DNA of 64,000 nucleotides from an uncultured Rhizobiaceae group bacterium (GCA_947501445.1 CANMVS010000020.1:12310-76309), one strand, 5' to 3'. Numbered from the stretch's first letter, positions 1,914-64,000 are shown. The notes: generated by a model from the letters alone, not told the origin. Numbers and translations are program-made.

Positions 1914-3047
1914 ATGACTACTGAACGTATTATAGATTTCCTCAACACCCGACGACCTGATGGTCCCTGTCTGGTGGTTGATCTTGATGTTGTGCGTGAC
2001 AACTTCACCGCCTTCAAAAGGGCGCTGCCACAAAGCGCCATTTATTACGCGGTTAAAGCCAATCCTGCCCCGGAAATCCTGCGGATGCTGGCGTCTATGG
2101 GATCAAATTTTGATGCTGCGTCGGTAACGGAAGTTGAGATGGCCCTTGAAGCCGGTGCAACGCCAGACCGTATCTCCTTTGGCAATACGATCAAAAAGGA
2201 ACGGGATGTGGCACGCGCCCATGCGCTTGGTGTTTCAATGTTTGCCGTTGATTGTGTGGAAGAAGTCGAGAAAATTGCCCGATCGGCCCCTGGTTCGCAG
2301 GTATTTTGCCGTGTTCTGACCGATGGCGAAGGTGCTGAATGGCCTTTGTCGCGCAAATTCGGTTGTGCGCCTTCAATGGCGGTTGATGTTCTGCGCCATA
2401 GCCATGCGCTCGGACTTGAAGCCCATGGTGTGTCCTTTCACGTCGGCTCACAGCAGACGCAGTTGAACGCGTGGGACAGAGCCCTCAAGGATGCGCGCGG
2501 TGTATTTGATGCATTGGCGGGTGAAGGCATTATCCTCAAGATGGTCAATATGGGTGGTGGATTTCCAACACGCTATCTGAAGGATATTCCGACAGCAGAA
2601 GCCTATGGGCAGGCCATTTTTCAGGCGCTGAGCAAGCATTTTGGCAATAATCTGCCGCACACCATCATTGAACCCGGTCGTGGCATGGTCGGCAACGCCG
2701 GCGTGATCAAGGCAGAAGTTGTGCTGGTGTCGCGCAAGGCCGACAATGACAATCTGCGCTGGGTCTATCTGGATATCGGTAAATTTGGCGGGTTGGCCGA
2801 AACGATGGACGAAGCCATTCGCTACCCGATCCGTACAAGCCGCGATAATGATGCGTTTGAGCCCTGTGTTCTTGCCGGGCCGACCTGCGACAGTGCTGAT
2901 GTGTTGTATGAAAAGAAACCCTATCCGTTGCCCATATCACTGACCATCGGCGACGAGGTGCTCATAGAGGGAACCGGTGCCTATACAACCACCTATTCCT
3001 CTGTGGCATTCAACGGGTTTGAGCCGCTGAAATCATACGTCATCTGA
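1914..3047 (+). CDS. Ornithine/lysine decarboxylase, PLP fold-type III
   Basis: YAVKANP (PLP lysine), SFHVGSQ, NMGGGFP, IEPGR, LAGPTCDSAD. Start refined to ATG 1914 with SD GGGAGA. Confidence 0.95.
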   Translation: MTTERIIDFLNTRRPDGPCLVVDLDVVRDNFTAFKRALPQSAIYYAVKANPAPEILRMLASMGSNFDAASVTEVEMALEAGATPDRISFGNTIKKERDVARAHALGVSMFAVDCVEEVEKIARSAPGSQVFCRVLTDGEGAEWPLSRKFGCAPSMAVDVLRHSHALGLEAHGVSFHVGSQQTQLNAWDRALKDARGVFDALAGEGIILKMVNMGGGFPTRYLKDIPTAEAYGQAIFQALSKHFGNNLPHTIIEPGRGMVGNAGVIKAEVVLVSRKADNDNLRWVYLDIGKFGGLAETMDEAIRYPIRTSRDNDAFEPCVLAGPTCDSADVLYEKKPYPLPISLTIGDEVLIEGTGAYTTTYSSVAFNGFEPLKSYVI

Positions 3048-59498: not shown

Positions 59499-60239
59499 TC
59501 AATTATGTTCATTGGCATTCAGTCTGCGCTCCAGCCAGCGAACACCGGCAGAAACAAGCAGAATGATGACAAGATATTCCAGTACCAGAATTGTGTAGAT
59601 TTCAAGCGGCCGGTATTCGGACACGACAAGCTCATTGGCCTTGCGTGTCAGCTCCGACATACCGATCACCGAAACAAGCGAAGACATTTTCAGCATGTAA
59701 ACAAGCTGATTGCCAAGGGCTGGCAGAATTCTGCGGATGGCCTGTGGCAATATGACGAACCGCATGGTGTCGACATAGTTCAGTGAAATTGAATGAGCCG
59801 CTTCATATTGCCCGCGGTTGATGGATTGTATGCCCGCCCGGAATATTTCCGCCTGGAATGCACTGTCAGACAGAGCCAGTGCAATGACACCCGCCCAGAA
59901 CACGCCAATGGTAAGACCGGTGACCTGCGGCAGCCCGTAGTAGACCCACAATATGAGGACCAGAATAGGGACGGCTCTTACAATTTCCACATAGACCTGA
60001 TTGAGGCGTCGCAGAAACGGTTTGTCCGAAAGGCCTGGCAGGGCAACCAGCAGACCGACGACGACAGAGATGAGGATCGCAGTCAGTGAGAGCAAAATGG
60101 TATAATACATGCCACTGAGAAGAAATTTCAGGTTCACCCATCCGGACGCTTTTGTCGGGTCCACCACATACCAGCCCCAATTGCTGGAGCAGCCGGAGAG
60201 CACGATGCCAATCAGAATGACTGTAGTGATGCGGATCAT
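59499..60239 (-). CDS. Polar amino acid ABC transporter permease
   Basis: VRAVPILV, AEIFRAGIQSI..GQYEAA, ILPQAIR; start refined to ATG 60239. Confidence 0.93.
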   Translation of the reverse strand: MIRITTVILIGIVLSGCSSNWGWYVVDPTKASGWVNLKFLLSGMYYTILLSLTAILISVVVGLLVALPGLSDKPFLRRLNQVYVEIVRAVPILVLILWVYYGLPQVTGLTIGVFWAGVIALALSDSAFQAEIFRAGIQSINRGQYEAAHSISLNYVDTMRFVILPQAIRRILPALGNQLVYMLKMSSLVSVIGMSELTRKANELVVSEYRPLEIYTILVLEYLVIILLVSAGVRWLERRLNANEHN

Positions 60240-60247
60240 GATGACAC

Positions 60248-61003
60248 CTAATGCTGAAGAATCTGGTTCAGGAAATCGCGGCAACGCTGGCTGTCGGGCT
60301 CTTTGAAGAACTTTTCCGGTGGTGAGATCTCAACGATTTCCCCATGGTCCATAAAGACCATCGTATCAGCGACTTTGCGTGCAAACCCCATCTCATGGGT
60401 CACGCACAGCATTGTCATGCCGGTTCCAGCCAGCTCGACCATGACGTCGAGTACTTCGTTGATCATCTCGGGATCCAAAGCTGATGTTGGCTCGTCAAAC
60501 AATATGATTTTCGGTTCCATACACAGCGTTCTTGCGATGGCAACGCGCTGCTGCTGGCCACCTGAAAGCTGTGCTGGGTATTTATGCGCCTGATCGGGAA
60601 TACGAACCCGTTCGAGGAATTTCATGGCCAGTTTGCGGGCATCTTCCATCGGGATTTTTCTTGAGCGCACCGGCCCGAGCGTCAGATTGTCCAATACGCT
60701 GAGATGAGGAAACAGATTGAACTGTTGAAACACCATGCCGACATTTGTTCGGATGGCCTCCATGCTTTCCTTGTTGTCTCCAAGATCCACGCCATTGAGG
60801 ATAATCTTGCCGGCGTTGTGTTTCTCCAGCCGGTTGATACAGCGTATCAACGTCGATTTACCCGAGCCAGATGGTCCGCAGATAACAACGCGCTCACCAG
60901 ATTTGACGTTTAGGGACGTATCCTTGAGTGCCTGAAAAGCACCGAAGAATTTTGAGACCTTCTGTATTGAAATGACCGGATTTCCGTTTTGAGCCTGCGT
61001 CAT
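60248..61003 (-). CDS. Polar amino acid ABC transporter ATP-binding protein
   Basis: GPSGSGKS, LSGGQQQRV, FDEPTSALDPE, VTHEMGFA; start refined to ATG 61003. Confidence 0.94.
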   Translation of the reverse strand: MTQAQNGNPVISIQKVSKFFGAFQALKDTSLNVKSGERVVICGPSGSGKSTLIRCINRLEKHNAGKIILNGVDLGDNKESMEAIRTNVGMVFQQFNLFPHLSVLDNLTLGPVRSRKIPMEDARKLAMKFLERVRIPDQAHKYPAQLSGGQQQRVAIARTLCMEPKIILFDEPTSALDPEMINEVLDVMVELAGTGMTMLCVTHEMGFARKVADTMVFMDHGEIVEISPPEKFFKEPDSQRCRDFLNQILQH

Positions 61004-61064
61004 ATCGGTCCTTTGCGTCTCTGCCTCTATTGACACCAAAAGGTAATCATAATGTTGTCTGACA

Positions 61065-61087
61065 TGCAACTTAATTAATTTGTTGCA
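61065..61087. promoter_or_regulatory. Palindromic operator candidate in the divergent ABC promoter
   Basis: TGCAAC-TTAATTAATTT-GTTGCA. Confidence 0.45.
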
Positions 61088-61147
61088 ATTTTTGACACTG
61101 CTTACTAACATGGGGCATGACAACAATAACAAAGGTGGACGGGAGCA

Positions 61148-61921
61148 ATGAGAGCATTAAAGATACTGGCAGCGGTCGCACTGTTAGGCATGATGTCTGT
61201 ACAGGCAAATGCACAGTCGGCCCTTAAGGAAATTCTGGACTCTGGTACTTTGAAGGTCGGTACGACCGGTGACTGGAATCCGATGACGATGAAAAACCCG
61301 GCAACAAATGGTTATACGGGTTACGATATCGACGTGATGACCGCGCTGGCTGGTGATCTTGGCGTTGAAGTCGAGTTCGTGGCGACGGATTGGAAGACAC
61401 TGGTCAATGGTGTTACGTCCGGCAAATACCACATCACCGGTTCTGCTTCCATCTCTCCTGGTCGTGCGAAGGTCGCAGGCTATTCGGACAGTTATTTCTC
61501 ACTGGCAACCGTGCCACTGATCCTCAAGGAAAATGCCGACAAATACAAGGACTGGGCTGACCTGGACAAGCCGGAAGTCAACGTTGCGGCAACGCTTGGC
61601 ACAACACAGGAAAAGCAGGTCAAACAGCATTTTCCCAACGCCACACATCGCATCGTAGAAGCACCGGCGCGTGATTTTCAGGAAGTGCTTGCGGGCCGTG
61701 CGGATGCGCATATTACCTCTAATGTGGAAGCCAACAAATTGGTCGACAAATATCCACAGCTGATGATTGTCCCCGTTATGGAACCAAAATCACCAACGCC
61801 CATCGCCATGCTGATGCCACAGGATGATTTTGTGTGGATCAACTATGTGAATACCTGGATCAAGTTGAAAGAAGAACGTGGCCTTTTCGACGAGCTGGCA
61901 GCCAAATGGCGCCTGGACTGA
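61148..61921 (+). CDS. Family 3 solute-binding protein of the PheC/cyclohexadienyl-dehydratase-related clade
   Basis: Signal peptide; LKVGTTGDWNP, GYDIDV, FQEVLAGRAD..ITSNVEA motifs. Confidence 0.85.
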   Translation: MRALKILAAVALLGMMSVQANAQSALKEILDSGTLKVGTTGDWNPMTMKNPATNGYTGYDIDVMTALAGDLGVEVEFVATDWKTLVNGVTSGKYHITGSASISPGRAKVAGYSDSYFSLATVPLILKENADKYKDWADLDKPEVNVAATLGTTQEKQVKQHFPNATHRIVEAPARDFQEVLAGRADAHITSNVEANKLVDKYPQLMIVPVMEPKSPTPIAMLMPQDDFVWINYVNTWIKLKEERGLFDELAAKWRLD

Positions 61922-61967
61922 GATCGATTTCAGGTTGAAATAATTTACCGTCATACGGTCAATGCTA

Positions 61968-62003
61968 AAACGCGCATCCATTCGAATGAATGGGTGCGCG
62001 TTT
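61968..62003 (+). terminator. Hairpin terminator after the binding-protein gene
   Basis: AAACGCGCATCCATT-CGAATG-AATGGGTGCGCGTTT, then GTTTG. Confidence 0.7.
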
Positions 62004-62043
62004 GTTTGTGCAGATGAGTGGTCCGGTGAACGCCTGTGGTGCC

Positions 62044-62375
62044 CCCGAGCGGCACGCTGAGACTTATCGAGAGGACACGGTTACCCGCGAAGCGGGCAAG
62101 CGCGAATTGTGCGTCGGGCCTGATGGCCCGCCCCGTCTGGAGCCAGCGCCGATAGGCGCGATACGGCGCGAAGACATTTATACAAAGCTATCGATGATCG
62201 GGTCGCAACTCAGATGCGCGCTCCTGTGAATACGTGGGCTTTGCGGGCGGGGTTGATTGTTTTCTATTCACGGCGCACCGGCGCTTTCGCGCCTGCCTCC
62301 ATAGGGGGCGGCCAAATTATTGGCCGGGCCACGGTCGTGGCCTGTTTGAGTGCCATGCAGGATTGCACCGGGTGC
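62044..62375 (+). repeat. Structured non-coding element, tandem copy A (~332 nt)
   Basis: About 14 differences from copy B; long closing stems and about 10 hairpins; G-T pairs consistent with + strand folding. Confidence 0.9.
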
Positions 62376-62401
62376 TGCGCACTCTGACTCTCGAGAGATT
62401 T

Positions 62402-62734
62402 CCCGAGCGGCACGCTGAGACTTATCGAGAGGACACGGTTACCCGCGAAGCGGGCAAGCGCGAATTGCGCGTCGGGGCTTATGCCCCGCCCCGTCTGGAG
62501 CCAGCGCCGATAGGCGCGATACGGCGCGAAGACATTTATACAAAGCTATCGATGATCGGGTCGCAGCGCCGAAGAGCGTTCCTGTGAACACGTGGGCTTT
62601 GCGGGCGGGGTTGATTTGTTTTCTATTCACGGCGCACCGGCGCTTTCGCGCCTGCCTCCATAGGGGGCGGCCAAATTGTTGGCCGGGCCACGGTCGTGGC
62701 CTGTTTGAGTGCCATGCAGGATGGCACCGGGTGC
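62402..62734 (+). repeat. Structured non-coding element, tandem copy B (~333 nt)
   Basis: Direct repeat of 62044-62375 after a 26-nt spacer. Confidence 0.9.
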
Positions 62735-62796
62735 GGTCCAGCATTTATACAACACCATAAAGTAACCGCACAGGCTTGCCTGCTATTAGCAGAACC

Positions 62797-62811
62797 ATTA
62801 GACATTCTAAT
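62797..62811. promoter_or_regulatory. LysR (GcvA-type) recognition box at the regulator's own start
   Basis: ATTAGA-CAT-TCTAAT, 3 nt before the ATG; contains T-N11-A and the CTAAT core. Confidence 0.7.
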
Positions 62812-62814
62812 ATT

Positions 62815-63741
62815 ATGCAAAATCTTCCATTCACGTCGCTGAGAGCATTTGAGGCTGTTGCCCGATTGCGCGGTTTCAATCGTGCGGCGGAGGAGCTTGG
62901 GGTTACCCAAAGCTCGGTCAGCCAGCATGTGAAAGCACTGGAGGAGTGGACTGGGCGCAAACTGTTGATCCGTTCATCGCACAACACAAGTGTCACCGAT
63001 GATGGCCAACAGTTGGCTGACGCCGTAAAGCGCGGCCTCGGTGACATTATTGATGTCTGCAATCACCTCAAACAGCGGCAATCGAATGAACAGGTTATCG
63101 TTCTTTCATGCCCGCCCGGATTTGCGCTGAACTGGTTGTTTCCAAGGTTGATCAATTTTGATCAGCGTTACCCTGATTTGCCGGTTTCCATAACGACACA
63201 TTCATTTTCCACCTCGATTTCACCCTCAGATACGAATCTGTCGATCCGCTACGGCACCGGTAAATACCCAAATCTGTTTACGCAGCAGCTTATGACAGAA
63301 CGTATGACACCAGTGTGCGCGCCGACCCTGCCTGATGGGGAGCCACCCTTGACACAAATATCTCACCTGGCCCGGCACACGGTTCTGCTCGACGAGATTG
63401 GCCAATATGAAGCCAATCCCCCGACCTGGTCCTATTGGGCACAAAAGGCCGGACATGATTTGCCGCGCCTTAACCGCACGCGAAGGTTTGGGCAAGCCAA
63501 TATGGCAGTGCAGATGGCCATACGCGGCGGTGGTATCGCCCTTGGTCGTGAACCATTGGTTATTGATGCGCTACGGGAGGGAAATCTGGTGATGCCGTTT
63601 GCGCAATTTGTACTGTCGGAGTATGGCTACTGGCTGGTTTGCAATCGGCAAACTGCACAACAGGAGCATATTCAAATATTCATGAACTGGCTGTTGGAAG
63701 AGGTGGCTGCGCAACCTGATATGGCAGATTTTGTTGGCTGA
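62815..63741 (+). CDS. GcvA-like LysR transcriptional regulator
   Basis: LPFTSLRAFEAVAR..GFNRAAEELGVTQSSVSQHVKALE, WLFPRL, IRYGTGKY; start refined to ATG 62815. Confidence 0.93.
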   Translation: MQNLPFTSLRAFEAVARLRGFNRAAEELGVTQSSVSQHVKALEEWTGRKLLIRSSHNTSVTDDGQQLADAVKRGLGDIIDVCNHLKQRQSNEQVIVLSCPPGFALNWLFPRLINFDQRYPDLPVSITTHSFSTSISPSDTNLSIRYGTGKYPNLFTQQLMTERMTPVCAPTLPDGEPPLTQISHLARHTVLLDEIGQYEANPPTWSYWAQKAGHDLPRLNRTRRFGQANMAVQMAIRGGGIALGREPLVIDALREGNLVMPFAQFVLSEYGYWLVCNRQTAQQEHIQIFMNWLLEEVAAQPDMADFVG

Positions 63742-63766
63742 AATCGGATTGCTAATGGCTCCTGGT

Positions 63767-63781
63767 ATTAGATGTTCTAAT
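63767..63781. promoter_or_regulatory. Second LysR box upstream of the Rieske oxygenase
   Basis: ATTAGA-TGT-TCTAAT, same arms as the box at 62797. Confidence 0.7.
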
Positions 63782-63870
63782 CTCTGCCATAATCTATTCA
63801 ACCTTGCCACAACGCGCGGCTGATCGCTAGACTCAAGGCTGGTGATCAGTCGGTATTTGGAGATGGACGT

Positions 63871-64000
63871 ATGTTTTTAAGGAACACCTGGTATGTGGCT
63901 GGCTGGAGCAAGGATTATGGACGTGAACTCAAGGCGGAAAAGCTTCTGGGTGAGAATATCGTCTTTTATCGCGCCCAAAATGGTGATCCTGTCGCACTGG
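63871..64000 (+). CDS. Rieske aromatic-ring/demethylase oxygenase alpha subunit (VanA-like), 5' part
   Basis: Manual translation MFLRNTWYVAGWSKDYGRELKAEKLLGENIVFYRAQNGDPVAL; SD GGAG; truncated by the window end. Confidence 0.85.
   Translation, partial: MFLRNTWYVAGWSKDYGRELKAEKLLGENIVFYRAQNGDPVAL

Follow-up and report, generated by a model that had tools for sequence, protein, structure and literature searches.

Two similar, palindrome-rich sequences stand in tandem within a 64,000-nucleotide stretch of DNA (here 'the window', i.e., the whole of the stretch that was analysed) from an uncultured bacterium of the Rhizobiaceae group. The pair is no unique, large RNA gene but one cluster among the many of a dispersed repeat family. 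More fully described, it is probably, though by no means surely, a cluster of two units from a palindromic mosaic repeat that is extragenic, non-coding, and spread over the genome, and that is selected for its folding as a single strand. The window is C20:12310-76309 of an assembly (G000) of 6.82 Mb, 110 contigs, and 52.7% G+C. Within that assembly blastn with the repeat unit returns 137 matches at 68 loci, covering 28.6 kb, and an nhmmer profile of 34 full-length copies returns 147 matches, covering 30.7 kb, with arrays consisting of one to five units per locus. An earlier note on this DNA, which had been made from the sequence alone, allowed that the pair could be a unique recent duplication; the pair, which belongs to a family of about 68 loci, is not unique. 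As 43 of the 68 loci reach a contig end, the true copy number must be higher, and the repeat is a main cause of breaks in the assembly.

The earlier note's observation itself is confirmed and its interpretation partly supported. The two direct copies that it described, of ~332 nt and with about 14 differences, are 95.8% identical over 333 aligned columns (62044-62375 and 62402-62734), one indel being among the differences. They indeed lie between a terminator-like hairpin and a LysR gene. The particular changes between copies are likewise present in the sequence as it had listed them, that is, the compensatory swap of GGGCC/GGCCC to GGGGC/GCCCC along with GTGCG to GCGCG, ATTGCAC to ATGGCAC, and AATA to AACA. 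The features of the locus are as follows, in window coordinates, with R1 a covariance model of the ~97-nt module described below:

61148 to 61921, plus strand: upstream gene for a family-3 solute-binding protein (open reading frame; Pfam SBP_bac_3, E 3e-23)
61968 to 62008, plus strand: terminator-like hairpin of the upstream gene (AAACGCGCATCCATTCG-AA-TGAATGGGTGCGCGTTT, then TGTTTG; read from the sequence)
62044 to 62401, plus strand: repeat unit 1, a complete 358-bp period with conserved linker (blastn; nhmmer profile positions 2-356)
62078 to 62178, plus strand: module A of unit 1, i.e., P1-P4 with the P5/P6 junction, forward (R1, full length, 90.5 bits, E 5e-18)
62261 to 62359, minus strand: module B of unit 1, homologous to A but diverged and inverted (R1, match spanning the whole model, 47.0 bits, E 1.8e-8)
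62390 to 62399, no strand: CTCTCGAGAG palindrome, the second symmetry centre (sequence; kept at most junctions elsewhere in the genome)
62402 to 62743, plus strand: repeat unit 2 (nhmmer C20:74712-75052, profile positions 2-340)
62436 to 62536, plus strand: module A of unit 2 (R1, 94.8 bits, E 5.5e-19)
62620 to 62718, minus strand: module B of unit 2, inverted (R1, also full length, 46.6 bits, E 2.3e-8)
62815 to 63741, plus strand: downstream gene for a LysR-family regulator (Pfam HTH_1 and LysR_substrate)

Unit 2 stops at about profile position 340, with unique sequence from there on, and a Rieske oxygenase gene begins at 63871. In three relatives (G011, G013, and G002) about 130-165 nt separate the solute-binding-protein gene from the Rieske oxygenase gene that comes next. 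Both the array and the LysR gene, which here stand between those two genes (61921-63870), are missing at that place in these relatives, and for that reason no precise junction is definable at this locus. Nor was an empty site recovered in relatives, these being too diverged, with identity of flanking DNA at 72-77% and synteny broken.

The 26 nt between the two copies had been read as a separator that contains a palindrome. The palindrome, CTCTCGAGAG, is there, in the linker that leads from module B of one unit to module A of the next, but these 26 nt are not a spacer: their consensus, TGCGAACTCTGACTCTCGAGAGATTT, is met with again at most of the genome's other unit junctions. Since the junction too is conserved, the period of the repeat is about 358 bp. 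A CRISPR-like reading, that is, of a long repeat plus a 26-nt spacer, is ruled out on the same grounds, the 'spacer' being conserved between loci.

Each unit consists, in order, of a module A (plus), a central linker, a module A' (minus; the module B listed above), and a second linker centred on CTCTCGAGAG. Module orientation consequently alternates along an array, as every unit holds one forward A and one inverted copy, with linkers between. In each of the two window units R1 matches module A on the plus and module B on the minus strand, and an nhmmer profile of module A gives a minus-strand match as well, at 62267-62337 (E 1.3e-4). In variant units (e.g., on contig C63) a 45-nt segment is 89% identical to the reverse complement of module A. 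Locus L032 of G009, which is another species of the genus, alternates in the same way, with a period of about 390 bp. The only parts of the unit which are common to relatives within the genus are positions 45-133 and 217-335. What had been proposed as a single, ~332-nt, three-domain RNA is instead built as a mosaic, from a ~97-nt module plus a diverged copy of it in inverted orientation.

Module A, of ~97 nt, comprises four short, GC-rich hairpins, P1 to P4, plus a small junction of P5 and P6. P1 is CCCGC-GAA-GCGGG, P5 is GCC/GGC, and P6 is GUCY/RGAC. Its linkers, GCAAG, GCCCCGUCYGGAGCCA, and GUGARGACA, are highly conserved. Minus/plus pairs of modules, spaced by 13-40 nt, occur in the genus and also in rRNA operons, and are predicted to fold into long, branched hairpins, with the linkers of the arms pairing and P1-P4 sticking out. 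The B-to-A and A-to-B stretches of the window are predicted to form this arm-to-arm fold partially. A different architecture, unlike that of the alternating 358-bp unit, is found in other families of the order, where ~97-nt modules follow one another head to tail, nearly without spacing, at a period of about 99 nt (G247:C20:278-674 and G039:C5:78645-78846).

That this structure is under selection as a folded single strand, as the earlier note also held, is supported by covariation and by a conservation that is five times greater in stems than in linkers. Within this genome, three stem positions of the 34 full units have clean double changes, without broken intermediates (CG18/GC16, GC19/AT15, and CG31/TA3). 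Local stem columns diverge from the consensus in 3.1% of cells versus 15.4% for unpaired columns, and 22 broken cells are observed versus 49 that would be expected were the paired columns independent. Across taxa, 58 module copies aligned to R1 have standard pairs in 97.7% of cells (versus 69.2% for shuffles, of which 0 in 500 attain the observed figure, and at most 50.4% for slid controls), and 22 of 24 pairs change on both sides, though these figures lean towards structure because the alignment was fitted to the model. A MAFFT alignment, which is independent of the model, already has changes on both sides in 10 of 24 pairs, including P6 with UA18/CG10 and P5 going from GCC/GGC to GGUU/AACC and GGCC/GGCC. 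Single-sequence folding z-scores are an unremarkable -1.4 for the plus strand and a better -3.1 for the minus strand.

The support is for local pairing. A scan of all column pairs over the 34 full copies found clean covariation in the local hairpins only, and none for the long-range closing stems that had been drawn (GAGCG/CGCTC with its partners, and GCACC/GGTGC). The local hairpins and the short P5/P6 junction of the module are supported, the long-range stems are not, and a three-domain fold built on such stems is rejected.

A further argument had been that the G-T pairs all work on the plus strand. An excess of G-U over A-C is indeed seen there (224 versus 13 cells over the 34 units), though that figure is due mostly to a few fixed pairs and to long-range pairs that were picked by a folding program which allows G-U. 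A count of events, restricted to the local hairpins, gives a ratio of about 8 to 5. Among the modules aligned across taxa, GU versus AC is 27 to 6 for dispersed copies in the orientation of the model and 5 to 4 for the 17 copies from rRNA operons which run antisense to it. As few independent events stand behind it, the argument is a weak one, and the excess, as read from these alignments, is weak evidence for strand-specific folding. It may nevertheless hint, if faintly, at strand-specific selection of a kind that a purely symmetric palindrome model does not predict.

Units of the same array have a mean identity of 88.9% (maximum 99.2%) versus a mean of 85.0% (maximum 91.6%) for units of different arrays. 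Since identity between loci never exceeds 91.6%, the family is old and without a recent burst. Recent duplication is local, as with the window pair and with a duplicated dimer on contig C4, at 99.2%; in some arrays neighbouring units are only 80-85% identical. Comparison of units thus indicates clusters that change locally while their stems are kept throughout. Within the genus the species that are nearest by one protein lack the unit, and the more distant G009 and G006 have arrays, which suggests patchy gain or loss, relatedness here being judged from that single protein.

Arrays do not end at any one place in the unit but at recurrent internal positions (about 1, 41, 150-160, 221, and 335-350), and some units have internal deletions, e.g., with positions 1-41 joined to position 159. 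The earlier note had proposed that definite ends be looked for. The array ends instead are ragged, with no target-site duplications, no terminal inverted or otherwise common terminal repeats, and no common terminal motif. The marks of a MITE are lacking, terminal inverted repeats (TIRs) and target-site duplications (TSDs) being absent and ends falling at many different unit positions. With such ends, mobility is at most a putative property of the family.

The repeat is non-coding. Units are 354-359 nt in length and most have stops in all six frames, with no conserved open reading frame and no Pfam match found in the repeat. A protein-coding reading is ruled out by the lack of a conserved frame and of Pfam matches, and by lengths that are not multiples of three. 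A search of window positions 60000-64000 against Rfam 15, at E values up to 1, returned only a chance miRNA match on the terminator hairpin, in keeping with the earlier note's failure to recognise a known RNA class.

Beyond this genome the module is widespread. Within the family R1 matches 65 of 121 genomes (64 of 120 other genera), and across the order 34 of 141 sampled genomes (29 of 100 genera). Several genomes of other families have 12-24 matches, in some of them as the head-to-tail arrays just described. By pattern scan, Hoeflea sp. TYP-13 and a Hoeflea metagenome-assembled genome (MAG) carry modules whose sequence and flanks are identical to loci of this genus, which places the genus with those two. 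In a collection of plasmids the window's own module went unmatched, and a generic module copy matched on three Phyllobacterium plasmids only. L069 and L077, contigs assigned by binning to Rhodobacterales (Paracoccaceae and Roseovarius MAGs), likewise carry near-identical modules. One of these bins is from the same oil-reservoir metagenome as a module-carrying Rhizobiaceae MAG, and the copies could represent mis-binning or transfer between orders.

Outside of the genus the best-scoring R1 matches, among those checked, lie within rRNA operons. There the module is found between 16S and tRNA-Ile, 7-10 nt past the 3' end of tRNA-Ile or tRNA-Ala, and between 23S and 5S, while in one genus a minus/plus pair is found within a ~245-nt insertion in the 5' part of 23S. 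This last case (L114 2451-2703; G053, of a different genus within the family) is similar to the intervening sequences (IVSs) of helix 9 that have been described from Alphaproteobacteria. The rRNA operon of the organism itself, on contig C47 (L122), also carries modules, at 2268-2364 (minus), 2377-2479 (plus), and 2575-2673 (minus), amid tRNA-Ile (2188-2261) and tRNA-Ala (2496-2568). An inverted pair of modules, that is, fills the spacer between the two tRNAs, and a third copy lies 7 nt past tRNA-Ala. On the contigs which carry on from the 5S side (C69, and the end of C33), repeat units are reached within a few hundred bases. Of tRNA genes outside of the rRNA operon none is associated with the repeat, only a tRNA-Met downstream of 5S being near one. 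This sharing with rRNA operon spacers across the order is not something that could have been known from the window sequence with which the first description was made.

In literature cited by PMC2743711 (Evguenieva-Hackenberg and Klug 2000), alphaproteobacterial helix-9 IVSs are described as palindromic, repeat-containing, cleaved by RNase III, and mobile-element-like. The module is like these in that one genus has it as an inverted pair within 23S, towards the 5' part, and is like rRNA spacer hairpins in occupying the 16S-23S and 23S-5S spacers of many genera. It differs in that the window array stands outside of any rRNA operon, and in that cleavage of the module by RNase III is putative.

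Among dispersed repeats the closest likeness is to the bacterial interspersed mosaic elements (BIMEs) of E. coli, which are clusters of REP or PU sequences. The repeat, like these, is extragenic and non-coding, consists of palindromic units in alternating orientation with alternating conserved linkers, and forms tandem clusters of variable length at many loci, with divergent copies retaining the potential to form stems. Differences are the module, here ~97 nt with four hairpins and a junction rather than the single ~35-nt stem of the E. coli unit; the period of 358 bp; the lack of any apparent sequence relation to E. coli PUs; and the lack of an associated RAYT. Inspection of the linkers by eye revealed no convincing IHF consensus.

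Within the same bacterial family the comparison is with RIMEs (Rhizobium-specific intergenic mosaic elements; Osteras et al. 1995) and with the Sm-repeats of Sinorhizobium meliloti, both cited in PMC2573895. These are intergenic elements of ~100 bp, mosaic and with large palindromes, and are known to confound the prediction of sRNAs (PMC2573895). Intergenic location, palindromes, and mosaic organization are shared with the present repeat. R1 gives few matches in large genomes of the family from outside of the genus (1-4 in G074, G080, and G258), and the best-scoring of these, as checked, are in rRNA operons. RIMEs number about 20 per S. meliloti chromosome. They probably are a different family from the module, though copy number argues for this only weakly.

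How such a family would come to have its present form may be pictured as follows. New loci would be seeded only rarely, by some copy mechanism, because copies at different loci do not exceed 92% identity. Clusters then would expand and contract locally, via unequal recombination or slippage between tandem units, with hairpins being kept presumably since folding as a single strand is required of the element. Where transcribed, the element would form a branched, long hairpin like that which the same module would form in pre-rRNA spacers. By analogy with those spacer copies, such a hairpin would probably act in RNA processing as a substrate or a barrier, i.e., in RNase III cleavage, in protection of 3' ends, or in insulating neighbouring transcripts. 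The element would thus not be an RNA gene in its own right.

The rRNA operons invite a stronger statement, which is that the ~97-nt module is an undescribed, structured, order-wide pre-rRNA element, with a role in rRNA or tRNA maturation, that in some lineages has escaped from the rRNA operon and then multiplied along the chromosome without a RAYT-type transposase. This we offer tentatively, as something that might be so. Were it true, then it would represent a new route of spread for processed RNA or hairpin DNA, e.g., by RNA- or recombination-mediated copying.

It is rather unlikely that the arrays are instead multi-copy genes for an undescribed structured non-coding RNA, whether of the ~97-nt module or of the ~358-nt unit, that are expressed from their own or from read-through promoters, with the product serving, e.g., as a protein sponge or a processing cofactor, and with the rRNA-spacer copies ancestral. 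The structure itself would suit such an RNA, as covariation is very strong, unpaired segments are conserved over the whole order, P4 is mostly capped by GNRA tetraloops or GNA triloops, and a purine-rich, asymmetric internal loop (GGA opposite GUGA) is conserved. The forward-orientation excess of G-U over A-C and the lack of an Rfam match would suit it too, and within rRNA operons the module is certainly transcribed. Yet 17 of the 23 copies in rRNA operons are antisense to the model, and the transcript there therefore carries the complement. Signals for dedicated expression are also wanting, as a consensus scan found nothing promoter-like or terminator-like within the unit or at the ends of the window array, this being a scan which did miss the hairpin at 61968-62008, probably because of a loop of only 2 nt. 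Arrays show no consistent bias in orientation relative to neighbouring genes either, with 4 co-oriented, 9 anti-oriented, 6 convergent, and 3 divergent with respect to the nearest long open reading frames (a heuristic call). Ragged and truncated array ends, units with internal deletions, and an inverted module that makes up half of each unit fit poorly as well with a gene for a defined RNA.

Also unlikely is a strictly non-autonomous transposable element which is mobilised in trans, i.e., one that is REP/REPIN-RAYT, IS200/IS605-dependent, IS110-dependent, or a MITE. REPINs are REP doublets which form hairpins, with the RAYT being a REP-associated tyrosine transposase, and the likeness to them is real: the repeat has inverted doublets that are able to form a long hairpin, is present in tens of copies per genome, all intergenic, and is patchy among species of the genus. 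Candidate enzymes are even present in the genome, as a broken Y1_Tnp-like gene and three IS110-family copies. The dispersed, REPIN- or BIME-type behaviour that had been proposed is thus seen, but no HUH/RAYT, TnpB, or IS110 partner is linked to the repeat, all three having been tried. A REP, moreover, is an imperfect palindrome of about 20-40 nt with a conserved, GTAG-like 5' tetranucleotide, which the ~97-nt module greatly exceeds in both size and complexity. A population of identical 'master' copies is lacking here, and the low identity between loci likewise counts against recent mobilisation, as do the ragged ends without TIR or TSD.

A cognate RAYT, that is, a usually single-copy, repeat-flanked Y1_Tnp gene, was not found. 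The only Y1_Tnp match in the genome is marginal (24 bits), is interrupted, and has no flanking repeat. This truncated or interrupted Y1 (HUH) transposase-like gene (C12:107095-107355, or L080 1318-1671, minus strand) has an HVH motif and a 117-aa open reading frame, with a TGA within the match, and intact relatives of about 230 aa are found in several species of the genus, none of them adjoining the repeat. Twelve Y1_Tnp loci searched within the genus contain no module. A Y1_Tnp gene furthermore is absent from four of the five genomes with 12-24 module matches, and this high copy number in genomes that lack the transposase means that a REP/RAYT explanation does not apply. For an IS200/IS605 or IS110 derivative one would look to an adjoining TnpA(Y1)/TnpB or DEDD recombinase, and none adjoins the repeat. 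No TnpB-type match was found in the genome, and the three IS110-family genes lie on separate small contigs (C58, C60, and C61; about 1.1-1.5 kb) without matches to the repeat. Presumably these contigs are collapsed, multi-copy insertion sequences, unrelated to the repeat.

Last, and quite improbable, is a DNA-level host element, i.e., sites for nucleoid proteins, gyrase, or polymerase, or else cruciform-forming domain boundaries, as with some E. coli BIMEs, for which hairpin potential would be retained for the DNA form: strong conservation of stems in old copies, under purifying selection at many loci, could be compatible with such a function, as could BIME-like alternation with conserved, AT-richer linkers and an orientation that is independent of neighbouring genes, but tolerance of forward G-U along with rarity of A-C is not explained by a DNA duplex function, and conserved presence in transcribed rRNA spacers points to RNA.

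What mainly makes this extragenic palindromic mosaic repeat of interest is an order-wide module that is common to rRNA operons together with the absence of a RAYT. In the literature searched no link between a dispersed repeat and an rRNA spacer element was met with, and a full-text search with the conserved motif returned nothing relevant. For these bacteria the family, at ~0.45% of the genome and at 43 of 220 contig ends, or roughly one in five, is relevant to both assembly and annotation. The module itself is a strongly covarying structure of ~97 nt, without an Rfam entry, that is found across much of the Rhizobiales, and a covariance model of it would keep such arrays from being called novel sRNAs in that order. 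As there are module-rich genomes without a Y1 transposase, another mechanism of spread must exist. A mobile-element origin of 23S intervening sequences has long been suspected, and the module supplies a testable link among dispersed palindromic repeats, rRNA spacers, and those intervening sequences.
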